DNA from: Longimicrobiales bacterium
GTDB taxonomy: Bacteria; Gemmatimonadota; Gemmatimonadetes; Longimicrobiales; Gaopeijiaceae
NCBI GenBank assembly: GCA_965249725.1
Contig: CBDFMQ010000002.1
Location: forward strand, 1,792,001-1,856,000
Reading direction: 5' to 3'
Length of the DNA: 64,000 nt
In this document: in pieces, positions 15,286 through 29,182 of the stretch
Layout: every line of letters starts with the position of its first letter
Position numbering within the stretch: the stretch's first letter is position 1
Translations under genes and position numbers: made by a program
The notes under the pieces: generated by a model
Databases searched by the model: none
What the model saw: only the letters and a program-made list of their open reading frames with translations
Told to the model about the DNA's origin: nothing

Positions 15286-16135
15286 ATGGCCGCACGTCCG
15301 ATTTCCACGTCGACCATCTCGTTCGGGTTGGTTTCCGTGCCGGTAAAGCTCTATGCGACCGGGGAATCCAAGTCTCGGATCTCGTTCAACATGGTCCACA
15401 AAGACTGTGGAACCCGTGTGAAACAGCAGTACATCTGTCCGAAGGACGACGGTGATCGTCCCCTGAGAGGACATGGTAAAGGGGTACGAGTTCGCCAAGG
15501 GGCAGTACGTGCTCTTCACTCCCGAGGAACTCAAAGCGGTCGAGCAGCCCAAGACCGACTCCATTCAGATCACGGAGTTCGTTCCTTCGGATCAGGTGGA
15601 CCGCCTGTTCCTCGACCGCGCCTACTACCTCGGGCCGGACAAAGGTGGCAACCGGGCCTACTTGCTCCTTTCCGCGGCCCTGCAGGAGACCGAGCGCGTC
15701 GCCATCGCCAAGTACGCTACCCGGGGCAAACAGTACCTCGTGATGGTGCGCCCCTTCGGCGAAGGCCTGCTGATGGAACAGCTCCTCTACGCCGATGAGG
15801 TGCGCGACTTCGCGGATGTGCCGGTGGAGGAGGGCGAGGTGGACGACTCCGAGCTGAAGCTGGCGGTGCAGCTCGTGGATCAGGCGTCTTCGGAAGAGTT
15901 CCAGGCCAAGGAGTACAAGGACGAAGTCCGCGACCGGATGCTCGAGCTCATCCAGCAGAAGGTCGACGGCGAGGAGATCGTCTCGTCGGTCACCGAAGAG
16001 CCCCAGACACAGATCATCGATCTGATGGCGGCCCTCAAGGCCAGTCTCTCCGACGAGGGCGAGGAGAGGAAGCCGGCCAAGAAGGCATCCAGTAAGAAGA
16101 AGACCACAGCCAACAAGAAGGCGTCTTCGGGCTGA
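15286..16135 (+). pseudogene. ku: NHEJ Ku protein, disrupted (one extra base near 15451 and in-frame TGA 15464-15466)
   Basis: N-terminus ISFGLVSVPVKLY...HKDCGTRVKQQYICP in one frame; MVKGYE...YYLGPD...YxDEVR...IIDLMAALKASL plus a basic tail in the +1 frame. Confidence 0.9.
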
Positions 16136-19287: not shown

Positions 19288-20466
19288 CTAAGGTACCACT
19301 TCCCCAAGAGCCTCCATGGCGGTCTGGAGCTGGTCGTCCGTGAGGTAGGGGGCAGGGCCGAATCGAAGCACGTCTCCCCGGTAGTCCGTCCGCACTCCGC
19401 GCGTGGCCAACCCCTCGCTCAACCGGGCCGCATCGGGAGAGCGTAGCGCCAGGAATCCCGCCACCCCCTCCAACGGCACGCTACGGTCCCGGTCCACCAC
19501 ATCAGGATCGAGATCCAAGCCGTCGAACACCTCCATGAGGAGCCCCACCTGGTGTTGGCTTCGCTCCCGCAAGCGCTCCTGGGTCAGTCCCTGCTCCGAG
19601 AAGAAGTCGAGCACGGCCGCCGCCCGATAATGGCTCGTGGGGTCGTACGTGGATCCGGCGAACCGAGCCGCCCCCTCGCCATAGGCCGTCCGCCCCTGGT
19701 CCTTCTCATGGGCCAGAGTGGCGAACTCGCTGAACCAGCCCGTGATGACCGGCCGGAACCGACAGCCATCCGGAAAACGCAGCCAGCAGTTTCCCTCCCC
19801 CATCTGCATGTACTTGTATCCGCCACCAACCACGAAGGCGCGACCCAACCGCTCCCGCTCGATCGAGTAAGGCACGACGTTGGTCGAGTGATACGCATCG
19901 ATCAGGAGTTCGGCCCCCAACGACTCACACGCGTCGAGGACGGCCCCGAGGTGGGGCACACAGTGAGCGTTTTGAAAGAGCACGCACGACGTCAGCACCG
20001 CCGCGGTCTTCTCGTCGACCGCGGCGATCAAGCGCTCGGCGAGCGTATCCGCCGGAAGCGCCGCGACCTTCACGACCTCCACGGGCTCCTCCGCCAGCCG
20101 ATCGAGCTGCCTCCGTATGCTATGGAACTCCTGGTCCGTCGTGACCAGTCGGGGGCGCTCAAGCAAAGGGGTGGCGGAGAGGAAGCGGGTGACGAGCTCA
20201 TGGGTGTTTTGTCCCAAGGCCACCAGTCCCTTCGGATCGTCGAGCAGTGTAGCCACACCACGTCGTAGTGCCTCCGCCCGCTCCTCGGCCAGGTCCCACT
20301 TCCGATCCACATGCTCGGCCGCATCGAGCCACGCCTGCTGCTGCGCCTCGAAGGCGACGTCGGGCCAGGCCTGGTGTGAGTGTCCGGTCAGGAGCAGCCG
20401 TTCGGAGACCCGAAAGCGAGTGTAGTGGGCGGCGAGTGCGGCTGGGTCGATCATGCGGTGCGCCAC
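19288..20466 (-). CDS. kynU: Kynureninase
   Basis: Class V PLP enzyme: LTGHSH, DAYHS, GGGYKY (PLP Lys), ITGWF, LRFGPAPY; adjacent to kynA. Confidence 0.88.
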   Translation of the reverse strand: MAHRMIDPAALAAHYTRFRVSERLLLTGHSHQAWPDVAFEAQQQAWLDAAEHVDRKWDLAEERAEALRRGVATLLDDPKGLVALGQNTHELVTRFLSATPLLERPRLVTTDQEFHSIRRQLDRLAEEPVEVVKVAALPADTLAERLIAAVDEKTAAVLTSCVLFQNAHCVPHLGAVLDACESLGAELLIDAYHSTNVVPYSIERERLGRAFVVGGGYKYMQMGEGNCWLRFPDGCRFRPVITGWFSEFATLAHEKDQGRTAYGEGAARFAGSTYDPTSHYRAAAVLDFFSEQGLTQERLRERSQHQVGLLMEVFDGLDLDPDVVDRDRSVPLEGVAGFLALRSPDAARLSEGLATRGVRTDYRGDVLRFGPAPYLTDDQLQTAMEALGEVVP

Positions 20467-20493: not shown

Positions 20494-21282
20494 CTAGAGC
20501 CGGCTGCGGATCGCCCAGAGATCCGGAAAGACCGGCGCGTTGAGGGTCGTGCGCAAATAAGCCGAGCCGGCGGACCCTCCGGTACCGGCCTTCATGCCGA
20601 TGGTGCGCTCCACCATTTTCACGTGCCGATACCGCCACTCCTGCAGCCCCTCGTCCAGATCGACCAGGCGCTCGCAGACGGAGGCCGCGGCGGGATTCTC
20701 CCGATACACATCGACAAGGACCTCCTGAAGATCTTCTGACGCGGCCACGGGCCGCGTGACGTCTCGGCTCAGGTGGGCCTCAGGCACCGGAAATCCCTCA
20801 CCGTGCAGGAAGGTGAGGAAGGCGTCCCACAGCGTTCTCTCGCCGAACCGTCGCTCGAGGTTCATTCGGCCGTCGCTGCCCTCCGGAAACCGTTCGATGG
20901 CCTTCGCGTTCTTGGCTCCGAGCAAATATTCCAGCTCGCGGAACTGATAGGACTGAAAGCCCGAAGCGGCCTCCAGGCGTGTCCGGAAGGAGAGGAACTC
21001 CAAGGGAGTCATCGTCTCCAGGATGTCGAGCTGAGCCACCAAAACCTTCAGGATGGTGAGCACCCGCTTGAGGGTGTGAAGCGAGCGGGAGTGATCCCCC
21101 TCCTCCATGAGTCGACACACGTAGTCCACCTCGTGAAGCACTTCCTTGAACCAGAGCTCGTAGACCTGGTGAATCACGATGAAGAGCATCTCGTCGTGCT
21201 CCGGCCCCTCGGAGAGCGGCTTCTGCAGGTTCAGCAGTTCCTGGATCTTGAGATAGCGGCCGTACGTGAGGGCTTCACTCAT
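20494..21282 (-). CDS. kynA: Tryptophan 2,3-dioxygenase
   Basis: TYGRYL, HDEMLFIVIHQVYELWFK, ASGFQSYQFRELE, WRYRHVKMVERTIG.K.GTGGSAG; ATGA overlap with the upstream gene. Confidence 0.97.
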   Translation of the reverse strand: MSEALTYGRYLKIQELLNLQKPLSEGPEHDEMLFIVIHQVYELWFKEVLHEVDYVCRLMEEGDHSRSLHTLKRVLTILKVLVAQLDILETMTPLEFLSFRTRLEAASGFQSYQFRELEYLLGAKNAKAIERFPEGSDGRMNLERRFGERTLWDAFLTFLHGEGFPVPEAHLSRDVTRPVAASEDLQEVLVDVYRENPAAASVCERLVDLDEGLQEWRYRHVKMVERTIGMKAGTGGSAGSAYLRTTLNAPVFPDLWAIRSRL

Positions 21283-23552
21283 TCGGTGGCTCCGAAGTCG
21301 AAAGCGAACCGTGCCGAATACTCGCTCACGGACTCGTACTGAGGCGGCCACTCCAGGTCATAGCCCAGCGTGTACGCGGCGTGCCGGGTCCAATACGGAT
21401 CGAAGAGGTGCGCCCTGGCGAGCAGGCAGAGGTCGGCCCGACCCGCCGCGAGGATCGTGTTCACGTCCATGTAGGACGAGATGTTGCCCACGGCCATGGT
21501 CGCGATGCCCACCTCCTGGCGCACACGATCGGCGAACGGAGTCTGGAAGAGCCGCCCGTACTGCGGGGCCTGGTCGGGAACGGTCTGTCCCGCGGACACG
21601 TCGACGATATCGCAGTCGTGAGTCTTCAGAAGACGCGCCACCTCCACCGAGTCCTCCGGCTCCATGCCGCCCGGCTTCCAGTCCACCGCGCTGATCCGCG
21701 CGGACATCGGCTTCTCGTCGGGCCACACACCACGGACGGCGTCGAACACCTCCAGAGGGAAGCGCATGCGGTTCTCGATACTGCCACCGTACTCGTCGTC
21801 TCTCTCGTTCGTGAGTGGCGAGACGAAGGAGGCCAGCAGATATCCATGAGCCAAGTGGAGCTCCAGGATGTCGAAGCCGGCCTCATGAGCGATCTCCGCG
21901 GCACGAGCGTAGTCGGCGATCGCCTGATCCATGTCGTCCCGCGTCATCTCCTTTGGGACGGGATTCTCGGGACGCCACGGAATGGGTGAGGCGGACAGTA
22001 CGTCCCACCCGTCCTGGGCCAACGGCTCGTTGTCGCCCTCCCACAGCTTCTGGGTGGACCCCTTCCGACCGGCATGACCGAGCTGGACGCCCACCTTGGC
22101 GCCGCTGTTTGCGTGGATGAAGTCCACGACCCTCTTCCAGCCGTCCACGTGCTCCGGCTTGTAGAGCCCGGTGCACCCGGTCGAGATCCGGGCATCTCGG
22201 CTCACATCGGTCATCTCTGCCATGACGAGACCGGCGCCCCCGACCGCACGGCTCCCGAGGTGCACGAGATGCCAATCGTTGGGCATCCCGTCCTCGGCCG
22301 TGTACTGGCACATCGGGGAGACCACGACACGATTCTGCAGGACCAGCTCGCGCATGCGGAACGCGGTGAACATGGGCGGTGGCGGCGGCACGAAGGGTAC
22401 CGCTCGGCCGCTCTGACGCTCGGCCTCGCAGGCGAACCAGGAGTCCACCTCGCGAATGTAGCCGGCGTCACGCAGACGGAGGTTCTCGTGCGTGATGCGG
22501 AGGCTTCTGGTGAGGAGCGTGAACCCGAACTGGACGGGCTCGATCTTCATGTAGCGCTCGGTGTCCTCGAACCACTGAAGGCTCGCCTGGGCGGCCCGTT
22601 GGACGCTCTCCACGGGCGGGCGCCGTTCCTTCTCGTACTCGGCAAGGGCGACGGACACGTCGGGAAAGCGGGCCATCGCCTCGGCGAGGGCGATCCCGTC
22701 CATCATCGCGATACGAGTTCCCGACCCCACCGAGAAGTGCGCCGTGTGCGCCGCATCCCCCAAGAGCACCAAGTTCTCGTGAGACCAAGCCTCGTTGCTA
22801 ACCGTCGGAAACTGCCGCCAGTGAGACCGGTTCTTCAGGAGGGGATGCCCCTCCAGTTCGTCCGCGAAGAGCTCCTCGCAGAACCGGGCGGTCTCGTCCT
22901 CGTCTTCGACAGCGAGCCCCGACGCCGCCCACGTCTCCTCGCGAGCCTCGACGATGAAGGTGGCCTTCCCCTCCTCGTACTGGTACGCGTGGACCCGCCA
23001 GAGACCGTGCTCGTTCTCCCGAAAGTAGAACGTAAAAGCGTCGAAGGGCCGAGTGGTCCCGAGCCATACGAAACGGTTTGGGCGGAAGTCGACGGTGGGT
23101 CGGAAGTGCTCGGCATAACGGTCGCGGATCTGGCTGTTCACCCCATCGGCGGCGAGGACCAGATCGGCGTCCCGGTAGGCCTCGACGTCGTCCACCTCCA
23201 CCTCGTAGTGGACCTCGATACCCAACCGATTCGCGCGCCTCTGCAGAATCCTGAGAAGCCTCCCCCGCGAGAGACCGGCAAAACCGTGTCCCGTCGAGGT
23301 GAGGATCTTCCCCCCGTAATGGATGTCGATGTCGTCCCAGTGGGCAAACGCTCTGGTAATGTCGAAGTAGACGTCCGGTTCAGCAGCCTCGATGCGAGCC
23401 AGCGTCGCGTCCGAAAAGACGACTCCGAATCCGAACGTGTCGTCGGGACGGTTGCGCTCGTAGACAGTGATCTCGCGGGACGGATCAGCCCCCTTCAGGA
23501 GAATGGCGGAGTACAGCCCAGCCGGTCCTGCACCCACGACATTGATTCTCAC
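21279..23552 (-). CDS. abmA: Bifunctional 2-aminobenzoyl-CoA monooxygenase/reductase (AbmA / salicylyl-CoA 5-hydroxylase family)
   Basis: FAD monooxygenase half ([35 protein letters not shown]) fused to an old-yellow-enzyme half ([29 protein letters not shown]). Confidence 0.92.
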
Positions 23553-24703
23553 TCTGAGGTACCTCTCCTCTGCTTCAAGCGATGACCTGCGATGATCAAG
23601 TGCTGAATGTCGGTGGCGCCCTCGTAGATGCGCAGTGCCCGGACGGAACGATAGAGCCGATCCACGACCGCCTCGGCCAGGACCCCGCGACCCCCCAGGA
23701 TCTGGATGGCGTCATCCACGACACGCTGAGCCGCCTCGGTGGCATAGGCCTTGGCCATGGCAGCTTCGACGGTAATACGCTCCGCCCCACGGTCCCGCTC
23801 CCAAGCCGCCCTGTACGTCAGGAGCCGCGCGGCCGTGAGTTCGGTAGCCATGCGTGCGAGCTTCTGCTGAACCAGTTGGAAGTCGGCCAGGGGCTTCCCG
23901 AACTGCTCACGCGACAGGGCATAGGCCTCCGCCTCGTCCAAAGCTCGGGCCGCCATGCCGCACGCGGCCGCTGCCACGGTGGGGCGCAGGCGATCGAAGG
24001 TGGCCATCCCGATCTTGAAGCCCTCCCCCTCGGCACCGAGTCTGGCGTGTGCGGGCACCCTGCAACCGTGAAAGGCCACTTCTCCCAGAGGATGGGGGGC
24101 GCTCATCACCAAGGGCTTCACGAACTCCAGGCCATCCGTGTCCGCGGGGACGACGAAGGCCGAGAGGCCACGGCTACCCTGCGCGGGATCGGTCGAGGCA
24201 AAGACCACGTACACGTCGGCGATACCGGCGTTGGAGATGAGCGTCTTGGTGCCCTCCAGTAGGTAGTCCTCACCATCTCGCACGGCGGTCGTACGCATGG
24301 ACGCTACGTCCGAGCCGGCTTCCGGCTCGGTCATCGCAAACGCCCCCAGGCTCGTACCGTCGAGGAGCCTCGGGAGCCATTCCTCACGCTGACCGGCGTT
24401 GTCGGCGAGCAGGAAGGGCGTCGCCGTGAGCGCCTGCAGCGCGTACACCGCGTCGGCCAGAGGACTGGCGCCCGCGATGGCCTCACGGGCTAGGCACGCC
24501 CCCCCGAGATCCTGCTCCTGAACGGGGCGCAGCCATCCACCTGATCCGAGCAGCGTCACGATCTCCCGAGCCTGAACACGCCCGGCATCATCGTCGGCCG
24601 GAGCGGGAAGCTTGGCCAGGTCAGCGGCCAAGGTCTCGACAGCGCTGGCCCATTCGACCTGCGCATCGTCCAAGAAGGCCCGCACGGCCCCGACGTCTGG
24701 CAT
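23549..24703 (-). CDS. Acyl-CoA dehydrogenase (AbmD-like)
   Basis: FAMTEPEAGSD, G.KTLISNAG, REQFGKPL, QILGGRG, RIYEGATDIQ. Confidence 0.93.
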   Translation of the reverse strand: MPDVGAVRAFLDDAQVEWASAVETLAADLAKLPAPADDDAGRVQAREIVTLLGSGGWLRPVQEQDLGGACLAREAIAGASPLADAVYALQALTATPFLLADNAGQREEWLPRLLDGTSLGAFAMTEPEAGSDVASMRTTAVRDGEDYLLEGTKTLISNAGIADVYVVFASTDPAQGSRGLSAFVVPADTDGLEFVKPLVMSAPHPLGEVAFHGCRVPAHARLGAEGEGFKIGMATFDRLRPTVAAAACGMAARALDEAEAYALSREQFGKPLADFQLVQQKLARMATELTAARLLTYRAAWERDRGAERITVEAAMAKAYATEAAQRVVDDAIQILGGRGVLAEAVVDRLYRSVRALRIYEGATDIQHLIIAGHRLKQRRGTSE

Positions 24704-25503
24704 CAGATAAACTGTGCGTCCCGCTTCGCGACAAAGGCCTCGTAGGCCTCACGGAAGTTGGGGTTCTCCATGCACTTGGCCTGGACCTGAGCCTCGGCCT
24801 CCAAAGCCGACGCGAGATCCATGGAGGCCTCTTCGTTGAGCGCTCGCTTCGTCATCTCCAGGGCATAGGACGGACCACGAGCCAGCTTCTCGGCCAGGCT
24901 GCGAGCCACATCGAGTAGATCGTCCTGGGGCACGACCTGGTTGTAGAGGCCGATCCGATGCGCCTCCTCGGGGCCGATGAAGTCGCCGGTCATGAGCAAC
25001 TGGGTGGCGTGGGCCAGCCCGACGATACGCGGCAGGAGCCAGGCGACCCCCATGTCGGCACCGGAGAGGCCCACCTTGGTGAACAGGTAGGCGATCTTGG
25101 CGTGCTCGGTGGCGATACGGATGTCGCACGCGGTAGCGATCACGGCACCCGCGCCGGCGACTGTTCCGTTCAGGGCTGCGATGACCGGGCGGCTGCACTC
25201 CCTGACGGCCAGAATCAGATTGCACGTCATCCGGGTGAAGTCGAGCAGTCCCTGGGAGTCCCGCTCGAAGAGGGCGCCGATGATGTCCTCGACGTCTCCC
25301 CCGGTGCAGAACCCCCGCCCCGCCCCGGTGATGACGATGCAGCGCACACCAGGCTCCACGTTCAGAGCCCGAAACGTGCTCTGGAGCTCCTCATAGACCT
25401 CGAACGTGAGAGCGTTGAGTCGGTCCGGGCGATTGAGCGTGATCGTGGCGACGGAGGTATCCGCATCGTGCTCGTACAGAAAGGACGTTGGCTGGATCGG
25501 CAC
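24703..25503 (-). CDS. Enoyl-CoA hydratase/isomerase (AbmC-like)
   Basis: ITLNRPDRLNAL, FCTGGDV, VAGAG, KVGLSGADMG. Confidence 0.92.
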   Translation of the reverse strand: MPIQPTSFLYEHDADTSVATITLNRPDRLNALTFEVYEELQSTFRALNVEPGVRCIVITGAGRGFCTGGDVEDIIGALFERDSQGLLDFTRMTCNLILAVRECSRPVIAALNGTVAGAGAVIATACDIRIATEHAKIAYLFTKVGLSGADMGVAWLLPRIVGLAHATQLLMTGDFIGPEEAHRIGLYNQVVPQDDLLDVARSLAEKLARGPSYALEMTKRALNEEASMDLASALEAEAQVQAKCMENPNFREAYEAFVAKRDAQFI

Positions 25504-25566
25504 TCCGCTCTCCCGGTTCCCCGTTAACGTCTGAAAGGCTGCTGAGAAGCCGTGTACCCGTGTGAC

Positions 25567-25971
25567 TTAACCGGGTAGGACGGCGGTGGCCTCTATTTCG
25601 ACCTTGGCCCTGGGATCCACCATCTCGGACACGGCAACGAGCGCCATAGCCGGATAGTGTCGGCCCATCCGGTCACGATATCTCGCTCCGAGAGGCTTCA
25701 GGCTACTGCGGTATTCGGCCATATCAGTCACGAAGATCGTGAAACGGGCGATGTTCTCCGGCCCCCCACCCGCCTCCTCCACGACCGTGATCGACCGGGC
25801 GAGAGCGGCGTCGAACTGATCGACGAAATCGTCCGATACGATGGTCCCCGAGTCGTCCGACCCGGCCTGCCCCGCCACGAAGAGAACGCGGCTGCCGGCA
25901 GGCGCCAGGAGCCCGTTGTTCCAGCCACTTGGCGGGCCCAGGGAATCGGGGTTGAAGATCTCGAAGGTCAT
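25567..25971 (-). CDS. RidA/YjgF family enamine/imine deaminase (AbmF-like)
   Basis: LFVAGQ, YPAMALVAV, KVEIEATAV; start at MTFEIFNP. Confidence 0.88.
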   Translation of the reverse strand: MTFEIFNPDSLGPPSGWNNGLLAPAGSRVLFVAGQAGSDDSGTIVSDDFVDQFDAALARSITVVEEAGGGPENIARFTIFVTDMAEYRSSLKPLGARYRDRMGRHYPAMALVAVSEMVDPRAKVEIEATAVLPG

Positions 25972-26051
25972 GAGCCGAACTTCACTGCGGAGCCCCCTGC
26001 CGTCAAACGGGGAGTGTCCTACGGTCACCCACCACGCGCGGGGGTCGGAGG

Positions 26052-26828
26052 CTAGGCCAGCAGGGCCCCACCGTCGATTACGATAGCCTGGCCGTTCACG
26101 CTCCCGGCGTCCTCCCCACACAGATAAAGCACGGCGTCGCCGACCTCGCCGGGCTCGACCAGTCGCTTTTGGGCGAGCGTCGCCAGCAACGCCTCGAGGG
26201 CCTCGCCCCTGGTCATGCCCGAGCGGGCCATGATCTGATCGATCGTGCCGTCCGTCATGGGCGTGTTGACGTAACCGGGACACAACGCGTTGACCGTGAC
26301 TCCGGTTCCGGCCATCTCGGCCGCCGCTGAGCGGGTCAAGCCGAGCACCGCATGCTTCGACGCGGAGTACGCCGACGTGTAGCGGCTTCCCAGACGCCCG
26401 GCCACCGACGCCACATTGACGACCCGCCCCCAGTCCCGCTCGATCATCCCGGGAAGGAAGGCACGGGCACAGAGGAATGAGCCCGTTGCGTTCACCTGAA
26501 TCGTCCGGTTCCAGTCCTCCAGGGTCTCGCGAACCAGAAGAGCCGAGTGGCCGACTCCGGCGTTGTTCACGAGGATGTCGACGCTCCCTAATGTGTCCGC
26601 GGCGGCCTGTTCGAGATCGGCGACCGAAGCTTCGTCGGCCACATCGCACAGGGCCCAGTGGGCCGACCCTCCCGAGGCCTCGATGGACTCGGCCACATCG
26701 CGGACCTCGTCCTGCGAGCGAGCGCTCACCAGCACCGCCGCGCCCGCATCCGCGAGCATTCGGGCTACGGAGGCTCCGATCCCACGGCCCCCGCCCGTCA
26801 CGACCGCCGTCTTACCTTTCAGGCTCAT
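26052..26828 (-). CDS. SDR oxidoreductase (3-hydroxyacyl-CoA dehydrogenase, AbmB-like)
   Basis: TGGGRGIG, NNAG, YSASKHA, VNALCPGYVNT. Confidence 0.92.
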   Translation of the reverse strand: MSLKGKTAVVTGGGRGIGASVARMLADAGAAVLVSARSQDEVRDVAESIEASGGSAHWALCDVADEASVADLEQAAADTLGSVDILVNNAGVGHSALLVRETLEDWNRTIQVNATGSFLCARAFLPGMIERDWGRVVNVASVAGRLGSRYTSAYSASKHAVLGLTRSAAAEMAGTGVTVNALCPGYVNTPMTDGTIDQIMARSGMTRGEALEALLATLAQKRLVEPGEVGDAVLYLCGEDAGSVNGQAIVIDGGALLA

Positions 26829-27598
26829 GACGGCTCACCTGCCTTCTGAGAACCCAGGATCGCGAGCACCGCCTCTTCGACGATCGCCCCGAGCGTGCGC
26901 ACGGTCTCGACCCCTTCTTCTGCGCTGGCGTCGGCCGGGAACCCGAAATAGGCCTGCGGCCCGCCCGCCTCGTGGAATGTCGAGAGTTCGTCGCGAATCG
27001 CATCCGACAAGGACTTGGGGTTGGGGGGGAGACCTCGCCGGATCTCCTCCCGTACCAACTCGGGCGCCACAGCCATTACGATGGACGTCTCGTACTGACC
27101 GGCATGACAGGCTCCTGACTGAAACTCCTCGGTCAGTCGAGCGGCCAAGTTCCTCTTGGTGAGGTCCGGGAAGATGATCGGCACTTCGGAGGCATACGCG
27201 CGCTGAACGGCGTTCCGTAGTGCGACGAGGTGGGTCGGATCCAGATGCGTATTGCAGAGCACCAAGCCCCGGGCCCCGTGAGCCGCCCCCGCCCGCGCGA
27301 TATCCCGGACCAAGCGGCTGAGCGCCTCGCTCGATACGGACACCGTTCCCGGAAACTCGGCCGCGAAGGACGCCGGCGTGTAGTCGATCGTGGGCAACAC
27401 CACCGGTCGCATGCCATGCACCTCGAGCCTCGCGGCGGCGTCGAGCGCCCATGCCTCGGCGATGATCCCATCGGTCCGCACCGGTAGATGAGGTCCATGC
27501 GCCTCCACGGCGCCGATAGGCAGCAGGCCGATCCACGGCTCGCTCTGCGCGTCTCTAGCCTCTTCCCAGGTCATCTCGGCTAGTGGACGTATCGGCAT
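26825..27598 (-). CDS. Creatininase / Fe(II)-dependent formamide hydrolase family protein
   Basis: MTWEE start, LPIGAVEAHGPHLPVRTD, FPGTV, NTHLDPTH, HAGQYETS; SD AGGAG. Confidence 0.9.
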   Translation of the reverse strand: MPIRPLAEMTWEEARDAQSEPWIGLLPIGAVEAHGPHLPVRTDGIIAEAWALDAAARLEVHGMRPVVLPTIDYTPASFAAEFPGTVSVSSEALSRLVRDIARAGAAHGARGLVLCNTHLDPTHLVALRNAVQRAYASEVPIIFPDLTKRNLAARLTEEFQSGACHAGQYETSIVMAVAPELVREEIRRGLPPNPKSLSDAIRDELSTFHEAGGPQAYFGFPADASAEEGVETVRTLGAIVEEAVLAILGSQKAGEPS

Positions 27599-27619
27599 GC
27601 GTGCTCCTATCATCGGGCC

Positions 27620-29182
27620 ATGGCCTCCATGTATCCCGAAGAGTTCAATATCGCCGACTACTTCCTGGATGCTCGCATCCGAGAAGGACGGGGGAACCGC
27701 ATCGCCCTCCGAACGGACAACTGCGACTTCACCTACACCGAGGTCCAGGAACTCGCCAACCGCTTCGGTAACCTGTTGCGTGCCGCCGGCGTGGAGCCCG
27801 GACAGCGCGTCATTATTGCGCTTCCGGACGCCCCCGAATATGTGGCGGCCCTTTTCGGGGTGCTCAAGATCGGCGCCGTGGTAGTCATGGTCAACCCGGA
27901 CCTGAAGCCCGACGCCATCGAATATTTCTACCAGTACACAGGCGCGCAGGTCGCTCTGATCCACGTCGAGACGCAGGTTGCCTTCCACGAAGCAGCCCAG
28001 GCCGTCGAGACGCCCCCCCGTCTTCGCGTCGTGGGCGACCACGACTTCGCGACGTCGCTGGACGAAGCCTCCGCCGAGTTGGACAACTACGTGAGCCACC
28101 GGGACGACCCCGCGATCTGGCTGTTCTCGGGGGGCACGACCGGTCAGCCCAAGGCCGTGGTCCAACCACATCGTTCCTTCGCCAACACCACCGATCTATA
28201 TGCGAAGGGTCACCTCCTTTATACGGAGGACGACATCACCCTCTCCGTACCCAAGCTCTACTTCGGGTACGCCACCGGATCGAATCTCCTCTTTCCGTTC
28301 TCGGTGGGTGGGTCGGCCGTCCTCTTTCCGGAGCGGTGCGTGCCGGACGTCCTCTTCGAGAAGATTCGGCGCTACAGACCCACCATCCTCATCAACGTAC
28401 CCACGATGGTAAATCACATGGTGAGCCAAGACGATGCGCGCGCTCAGGACCTCTCATGCCTGCGGCTCGCGACTTCGGCCGGAGAGGCTCTCCCGATGGA
28501 ACTCCACAGCCAATGGAACGACGTCTTCGGTGTCGACCTCCTGGACGGACTCGGGACCGCCGAGATGTGGCACATCTTCCTCTCCAACCGGCCAGGCGAC
28601 GTACGCCCCGGCACGCTCGGAACGGTGGTGGAGGGATTCGAGGTGAAGGTCTGCGGTCCCGGGGGGAACGAGCTGGCCCCCGGAGAGGTCGGATTGCTCC
28701 GCGTCCGAGGGGACTCACGAGCGATCGGCTACTGGGAACAGCCCGAGAAGACGCGCGACGCCTTCGAGGGGAACTGGTATCTGTCCAGCGACATGGTCAG
28801 CCGAAGCGAAGAGGGTGTCTTCACCTATGCCGGTCGTTCCGACGACATGCTCAAGGTGTCCGGCAAGTGGCTCTCGCCAAAGGAAGTCGAGAACTGCCTC
28901 CTTCAGCACCCGGGGGTGGACGAATGCGCCGTGGTCGGGGTCGTCGTCGAGGGGGGACTGATCAAACCGCGTGCCTACGTCGTCCTCACAGAAGAGGCGG
29001 CAGGCCGGGAGCAGGATGAAGAGGCAGGAGGCCGACAGCAGGATGATCTGGCCGACGAGCTGAAGCTCTACGTGAAGGAGACGCTCGCACCCTACAAGTA
29101 TCCACGAGAGATCCACTTCATGGACGACCTTCCACGAACCCATCTGGGCAAAGTGGACAGGGGCAAGTTGCGGAGCATATGA
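27620..29182 (+). CDS. Benzoate-CoA-ligase-family protein, probably anthranilate-CoA ligase (AbmG-like)
   Basis: FNIADYFLD, FSGGTTGQPKAV, PKLYFGYATG, SAGEALP, DGLGTAEMWHIF, GRSDDMLKVSG, LPRTHLGKV. Confidence 0.92.
   Translation: MASMYPEEFNIADYFLDARIREGRGNRIALRTDNCDFTYTEVQELANRFGNLLRAAGVEPGQRVIIALPDAPEYVAALFGVLKIGAVVVMVNPDLKPDAIEYFYQYTGAQVALIHVETQVAFHEAAQAVETPPRLRVVGDHDFATSLDEASAELDNYVSHRDDPAIWLFSGGTTGQPKAVVQPHRSFANTTDLYAKGHLLYTEDDITLSVPKLYFGYATGSNLLFPFSVGGSAVLFPERCVPDVLFEKIRRYRPTILINVPTMVNHMVSQDDARAQDLSCLRLATSAGEALPMELHSQWNDVFGVDLLDGLGTAEMWHIFLSNRPGDVRPGTLGTVVEGFEVKVCGPGGNELAPGEVGLLRVRGDSRAIGYWEQPEKTRDAFEGNWYLSSDMVSRSEEGVFTYAGRSDDMLKVSGKWLSPKEVENCLLQHPGVDECAVVGVVVEGGLIKPRAYVVLTEEAAGREQDEEAGGRQQDDLADELKLYVKETLAPYKYPREIHFMDDLPRTHLGKVDRGKLRSI
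28991..29044 (+). repeat. 27-bp in-frame tandem duplication in the CoA ligase (EEAAGREQD/EEAGGRQQD)
   Basis: gaagaggcggcaggccgggagcaggat / gaagaggcaggaggccgacagcaggat. Confidence 0.8.

Follow-up and report, generated by a model that had tools for sequence, protein, structure and literature searches.

KynA makes N-formylkynurenine, and according to the older literature kynureninases can cleave this compound. Archaeal ArfB is a creatininase-family formamidase of the riboflavin pathway. In tryptophan catabolism the formyl group is usually removed by KynB (TIGR03035; accessible part of PMC4243253), with which the gene described here shares its proposed chemistry, a metal-dependent reaction that frees formate from an aryl formamide with an ortho substituent; the two genes have largely mutually exclusive distributions. 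KynB has a cyclase fold, whereas the protein found here has a creatininase fold, is linked to a CoA ligase rather than to kynA and probably acts after kynureninase. A precedent for formamide hydrolysis in the same Pfam family is the proven formamidase Sm-BrbF, as described in the accessible sections of PMC9478397. BrbF and ArfB belong to the riboflavin pathway and act on a phosphorylated pyrimidine, whereas the recurring neighbours surveyed here included no riboflavin genes. The abm cluster of Azoarcus evansii, known to us from the available part of a review (PMC4539516), contains a ligase, a monooxygenase/reductase and beta-oxidation-type genes, and anthraniloyl-CoA is passed to AbmA and the beta-oxidation-like enzymes. 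The locus studied here has the same types of gene, but its ligase is of another clade, with Gly at the Ala227 column, and three further genes are attached: the creatininase-family gene, kynA and that of a divergent kynureninase (KynU*).

The window, i.e. the whole stretch of 64,000 nucleotides that was analysed, carries an operon on the minus strand and a divergent ligase gene (Table 1). Profile matches confirmed the gene order given in an earlier note (creatininase-like, SDR, Rid, enoyl-CoA hydratase, acyl-CoA dehydrogenase, abmA, kynA, kynU-like), but that reading of the neighbourhood had omitted the aryl-CoA ligase, the most constant partner. The operon is covered by contigs of four public runs, one of which spans 21049-27913 with 3 differences. 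The creatininase-family ORF begins with an ATG at 27598, immediately preceded by AGGAG, and its stop codon overlaps the SDR start. The divergent creatininase-like and ligase starts (27584-27620, plus strand) are 21 bp apart. A promoter-like hexamer ends 7 bases 5' of the ligase ATG, as in a leaderless transcript (1 site versus 1.0 expected by chance); a promoter and terminator scan was at chance level. On TIGR03036, kynA scored 282.7 bits, below the cut-off of 390.7.

Table 1. Genes of the creatininase-family locus (window coordinates) and the evidence for each assignment.
Feature	Position	Strand	Evidence
Creatininase-family metallo-amidohydrolase gene	26825..27598	-	PF02633, aligned ligands, subfamily motifs NxH[LF][DE]P and SGACHAGxxE
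Aryl-CoA ligase of distinct clade (LIG*)	27620..29182 (start 27620 or 27629)	+	TIGR02262, 485.8 bits, above cut-off; PDB alignment; clade and motif
Short-chain dehydrogenase (SDR) of abm cluster	26052..26828	-	PF00106, 206.9 bits
Rid/RidA-family protein	25567..25971	-	PF01042, 42.8 bits on in-frame part; start from ORF translation
Enoyl-CoA hydratase family protein	24703..25503	-	NF006107, 365.8 bits, above cut-off
Acyl-CoA dehydrogenase	23549..24703	-	PF00441, 165.6 bits
abmA, anthraniloyl-CoA monooxygenase/reductase type	21279..23552	-	NF006101, 1130.8 bits, above cut-off of 1078
kynA, tryptophan 2,3-dioxygenase	20494..21282	-	PF03301 (Pfam TDO), 225.2 bits
Divergent kynureninase KynU*	19288..20454 (start 20454 or 20466)	-	PF22580, 26.9 bits (cut-off 27); fold; motif census

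The creatininase-family gene product has 257 aa and matched the Pfam Creatininase profile (PF02633) at 173.5 bits (gathering cut-off 31.3). When its predicted model (pLDDT 94.5) was submitted to Foldseek, the best fold matches were all creatininases. All ligands named in the earlier note (E-x-H, D, H and HAGxxE) were found to align with those of Pseudomonas creatininase, with E32, H34, D43, H118, H165 and E170 corresponding to E34, H36, D45, H120, H178 and E183. These binuclear metal ligands are invariant or nearly so across 55 subfamily members. The NTHLDPTH loop had been taken as a sign of a distinct substrate, but NTHLDP resembles the NGHYEN loop of true creatininase, and D120 falls on E122 in the alignment, so that the loop by itself is no proof of a new substrate. 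E122 has a catalytic role; E122Q mutants of creatininase have been deposited in the PDB. The protein thus resembles Pseudomonas putida creatininase (1j2t, 3a6d; TIGR04448) in fold, in all metal ligands and in the acid at the E122 column, and differs in its low identity (23-26%) and in the SGACHAG sequence around the last His. It scored 87 bits on the creatininase equivalog model TIGR04448 (cut-off 235), 103.4 on MftE (TIGR03964, cut-off 172) and 33.8 on IolN (NF041098, cut-off 245). The KynB profiles TIGR03035 and PF04199 gave no match, and the fold also differs. Hence it does not count as a KynB, even if its function may be similar. The gene is real and conserved, and encodes an uncharacterised enzyme.

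The earlier note was also right that the window contains no cyclase-family kynB, and no canonical kynB was found elsewhere in the source genome (95.8% complete). Four cyclase-family genes are present, all outside the window, and reach 31-72 bits on TIGR03035 (cut-off 223). The one compared with the PDB was of the isatin-hydrolase type. A BD-FAE alpha/beta hydrolase of the source genome is 39% identical to one located beside a canonical kynU elsewhere, and a formamidase of the alpha/beta-hydrolase fold may be present.

The gene called kynU in the earlier note has the kynureninase fold but belongs to a divergent subtype. KynU* matched no NCBIfam model, including TIGR01814 (cut-off 246.4), and was missed by phmmer against the PDB; its top Foldseek match was kynureninase 1qz9 (TM 0.82, 22% identity). 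It shares with KynU the fold, the PLP lysine and the place beside kynA, and differs in having HSH[QH] for NSLG, the motif GHSHQAWP replacing GNSLG in the window's protein. No canonical kynureninase was detected in the source genome, where the best TIGR01814 match reached 93.9 bits against 246; this is the score of L314 (G000:C1:28263-29369), a further PLP enzyme related to kynureninase, whose motif reads NSCSLG. As our KynU profile (A2) mixes 31 HSH-type and 7 other rows, subtypes were assigned from motifs and single-protein searches. His-type KynU* was found in 42 of 50 ligase-carrying genomes (including the unpublished G479), and the HSHH type in all five proteobacterial carriers that have no TIGR01814 match. 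Most other hosts examined have His at the motif, including four that also have canonical KynU or KynB. In four Planctomycetota carriers the KynU-like gene is of the NNSLG type, not the His type, and no KynU was found in carrier G016. Elsewhere, in seven small Sphingomonadales genomes (L190-L202) abmA stands alone, away from any ligase or other abm genes, and kynA adjoins an HSHH-type KynU*. Searches of the control genome, Caulobacter vibrioides, gave a TDO match but neither a cyclase nor a kynureninase above cut-off, which makes it a possible KynU* host.

The subfamily to which the creatininase-like protein belongs is recognised by F[QRKM]SGACHAGxxE (78 of the first 80 loci) and NxH[LFH][DE]P (80/80). 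A second scan of GTDB genomes recovered at least 567 loci from Gemmatimonadota, Eisenbacteria, Acidobacteriota, Planctomycetota, Alphaproteobacteria, Myxococcota and Vulcanimicrobiota. Where source names are shown, members are annotated solely as 'creatininase family' or 'creatinine amidohydrolase', and a protein atlas search returned creatininase-family clusters alone. A neighbour census covered 147 loci, those left when 9 duplicates were removed from the 156 retrieved; the ligase was present in 128 and lay within 400 bp in 111. SDR (98), enoyl-CoA hydratase (97), Rid (95), abmA (84) and kynA (42) were less constant, and a cyclase was found in none. Of 81 long loci, 77 had at least one abm-type gene. 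A two-gene module of ligase and creatininase-like gene only is found in several Sphingomonas and Terricaulis-like genomes, with abmA elsewhere in 5/5 checked, and the gene stays with the ligase where kynA-kynU relocate. Cultured carriers include Sphingomonas horti MAH-20, S. changbaiensis NBRC 104936 and S. leidyi DSM 4733. In the Planctomycetota carriers L059, L061, L078 and L087 only a reductase-half abmA match was seen within 10 kb, together with thioesterase and MarR genes, a divergent kynA and the NNSLG KynU-like gene.

Natural fusions were found for several partners. Six protein clusters join the subfamily to SDR and one joins it to Rid; in P0212, a 658-aa singleton, it is fused to a KynU* that is 56% identical to the window's. 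A search of longer proteins revealed no second KynU* fusion, a blank that is weak evidence. A mirror-tree test on 52 carrier loci gave rho of 0.80-0.89 for all pairs and singled out no partner. The predicted complex of ligase and creatininase-like enzyme scored 0.00, which speaks neither for nor against an interaction.

We also used the ligase as bait. Of 69 loci, 14 were set aside (contig edges, weak matches), leaving 55 informative ones with enough downstream DNA, and the creatininase-like gene was present in 46 of these. Five of the nine genomes without it at this position were searched whole (completeness not given) and the gene was found in none; no common substitute gene lies downstream of the ligase in the nine loci. 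A quick tree was built from 69 of the 143 full-length ligases; a single long branch separated carriers from non-carriers, G435 being the sole exception. The motif is FGYA[TML]G in 124 of 126 carrier loci, whereas 26 of the 27 abm loci of non-carriers have xFT[FY]. By PDB alignment, LIG* has Gly at the BadA Ala227 column, where the anthranilate ligase AuaEII has Thr. The A227G mutant of BadA gains activity on, and favours, ortho-substituted benzoates (accessible part of PMC10803450, citing Thornburg 2015). Carrier status switches twice on the ligase tree and at least five times on a tree of 76 of 107 AbmA sequences; the gene is therefore tied to the ligase and not to AbmA type. About 33 kb from the operon lies a stand-alone ligase very similar to AuaEII (L389:5057-6655, G000:C3; 735 bits to 4wv3), flanked by dnaE-like and phosphate-transport-like genes as read from their translations. 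It has no close counterpart in five other carriers and was judged incidental.

The phylum-wide distribution was examined in 201 Gemmatimonadota genomes (including the unpublished G228, G143 and G203). The creatininase-like gene was present in 63, kynA in 122, a KynB-like cyclase in 70, abmA in 83 and KynU* in 74. Nearly all carriers had kynA (62/63) and KynU* (61/63). Among kynA-positive genomes, KynB-like cyclases were found in 8 of 62 carriers and in 36 of 60 non-carriers; those of the eight carriers all scored 163 bits or less and none was beside kynA, as opposed to 21 of the 36 in non-carriers. With the threshold set post hoc at 165 bits, the counts were 0/62 and 28/60. This contrast is largely one of family f5 (0/40 carriers, KynB-rich) versus f1/f4/f7/f9 and the genomes are kin, so that P values overstate it. 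In three Gemmatimonadota carriers (L094-L096) KynB-like cyclases lie among enoyl-CoA hydratase and other acyl-CoA genes, away from kynA. Two Acidobacteriota carriers, G023 and G027, are exceptions with near-canonical KynB (232.8 and 220.6 bits).

The gene was found in all 59 genomes that have both abmA and KynU*. With abmA and no KynU* it was found in 1 of 24 (a genome with kynA at a contig end), and 19 of these 24 have KynB-like genes; with KynU* and no abmA it was found in 2 of 15, both fragmented assemblies. KynB-like matches occurred in 9 of the 74 genomes with KynU* and in 35 of the 48 kynA-positive ones without it. Thirteen genomes have kynA and KynU* but not the creatininase-like gene, 12 of which also have no KynB-like match; of the single-contig assemblies among them, 5 were tested, and cyclases are wholly absent from 3. 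The co-occurrence with kynA/kynU and the anti-correlation with kynB that the earlier note proposed to check are seen, but the 13 genomes have lost the gene while kynA and KynU* stay.

Many abm clusters lack the gene. It was present in 0/20 Gemmatimonadota non-carrier abm loci, in one of which (L151) kynB-kynA adjoin instead. In 191 genomes of Sphingomonadales, the order of S. horti, abmA was found in 73 and the creatininase-like gene in 2. Among 20 abm loci fetched from these 73 genomes, those with canonical KynU, often beside kynB, were without the gene; G297 (His-type KynU*) and S. horti had ligase and creatininase-like gene, and G435 had KynU* and a carrier-type ligase without it. The creatininase-like gene is not a core abm pathway gene. 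A bacterial indoleamine 2,3-dioxygenase gene (PF01231, 305 bits) lies beside canonical kynU and an abm cluster in Gemmatimonadota (L144:11418-12548 and relatives L152 and L157). At L147 and L185 the abm clusters adjoin two other genes, for a cyclase of the isatin-hydrolase type and a protein like TPP-dependent oxidoreductases, which suggests that an indole-derived compound enters there.

The sequence data suggest that two textbook steps run in reverse order, and that the gene is probably the deformylase of tryptophan breakdown in bacteria without the usual enzyme. KynA would convert tryptophan to N-formylkynurenine, which KynU* would split, without prior deformylation, into alanine and N-formylanthranilate. 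Next, the creatininase-family enzyme, whose fold and ligands are those of a binuclear metal amidohydrolase, would remove the formyl group from N-formylanthranilate, either free or as CoA ester, and anthraniloyl-CoA would enter AbmA and the beta-oxidation-like steps. We consider this order, with KynU* acting first, somewhat better than an even bet. KynB's job would be done by the creatininase-family enzyme one step later. If the enzyme acted before KynU*, the 13 genomes with kynA and KynU* but no creatininase-like gene would stall at N-formylkynurenine. It is simpler to suppose that KynU* takes N-formylkynurenine itself and that the formyl group has to be removed only from rings bound for the CoA route. 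Removal of the formyl group from free N-formylanthranilate, before the ligase, is a serious possibility that falls short of even. It is favoured by the likely instability of the formylated thioester, which on chemical grounds may cyclise to a benzoxazinone. Removal from N-formylanthraniloyl-CoA, after the ligase, is favoured by the roomy ligase and is rather doubtful. We likewise put forward only tentatively a widespread 'formyl-late' pathway with neither kynurenine nor free anthranilate. Its three dedicated subfamilies would be KynU* as N-formylkynureninase, the ligase with Gly at the Ala227 column as N-formylanthranilate-CoA ligase, and the creatininase-fold protein as N-formylanthraniloyl-CoA deformylase. 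Several carriers and ligase loci fit the preferred order poorly: the 9 of 55 ligase loci and G435 that have no creatininase-like gene, the KynB of G023 and G027, the NNSLG KynU of Planctomycetota and G016 without KynU.

The earlier note had put forward a plain non-orthologous kynurenine formamidase, by which N-formylkynurenine would be deformylated between KynA and KynU* in the textbook order. It was correct in that carriers have kynA (all 50 hosts, besides the phylum sample) and are mostly KynB-free, and in that the gene is absent from the abm clusters of genomes with KynB (0/20). The anti-correlation with KynB at the post hoc threshold and the kynB-kynA pair that adjoins the non-carrier cluster L151 fit this role, the P0212 fusion is compatible with either order, and KynU*-only genomes could be served by alpha/beta-hydrolase formamidases or by spontaneous deformylation, in which case the textbook order would survive. 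The gene is nevertheless no drop-in partner of kynA. It adjoins and follows the ligase, down to the two-gene modules with the ligase that lie apart from abmA in Sphingomonas; it is lost with abm in 13 genomes where kynA and KynU* remain; and a plain formamidase leaves the joint change of ligase clade and KynU subtype unexplained. We regard this role as unlikely, though it overlaps with the preferred one, as a dual activity on both aryl-formamides is possible. The linkage to the ligase and the 13 genomes favour N-formylanthranilate, which the earlier note had given in brackets.

That note's other suggestion, action on a product downstream of AbmA, would mean hydrolysis of a C-N bond in an alicyclic CoA intermediate, or of a C-C bond as in IolN, a creatininase-family member named 3-dehydro-scyllo-inosose hydrolase in NCBIfam. 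The gene is indeed embedded in the abm operon, with an abm-type gene in 77/81 long loci, and has the SDR and Rid fusions and a weak IolN match (33.8 versus 245 bits). These fusions mirror gene order, however, and complete abm clusters exist without the gene, both in Gemmatimonadota (0/20 non-carrier loci) and in Sphingomonadales (gene in 2, abmA in 73 of 191). As carrier status also tracks ligase and KynU type and not AbmA clade, we find a downstream role improbable. A repair enzyme that clears a ligase side product or formylated by-products (a benzoxazinone, a mis-activated formyl-CoA ester), with another hydrolase doing the main deformylation, would explain why the gene is tightly linked to one ligase clade yet dispensable (9/55 loci; G435), and creatininases act on cyclic amides according to the accessible sections of PMC9478397. 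However, all 59 genomes that combine abmA with KynU* have kept the gene, a stricter retention than an accessory role would predict, and no common substitute follows the ligase where it is missing. We find a repair role improbable. NAD synthesis via kynurenine was not supported, with 3-HAO above cut-off in 0/5 genomes, but the control was positive in 0/14.

On sequence grounds, then, the tryptophan pathway is most likely reordered here, and the gene most likely encodes a new deformylase of aryl formamides within it. A literature search, with poor coverage of subscription journals and older biochemistry, found no creatininase-family kynurenine or N-formylanthranilate deformylase, and neither this subfamily nor this route. 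If the assignment is true, it fills the 'missing kynB' gap in hundreds of genomes annotated merely as 'creatininase family protein', adds a third fold for aryl-formamide hydrolysis and gives a function to a kynureninase subtype missed by current NCBIfam models. If the order is reversed, tryptophan would be degraded without kynurenine, and pathway tools would have to predict differently which soil and sediment communities produce kynurenine and anthranilate. The 'formyl-late' pathway, if true, would apply to ~30% of sampled Gemmatimonadota and to scattered Alphaproteobacteria, Acidobacteriota, Planctomycetota and Eisenbacteria. The cultured Sphingomonas carriers make the question directly testable.

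Elsewhere in the window, a Ku (NHEJ) gene at 15286-16135 (plus strand) is split over two frames. One base near 15451 is missing in contigs of 3 of 4 public runs, indicating an assembly error or a strain variant.
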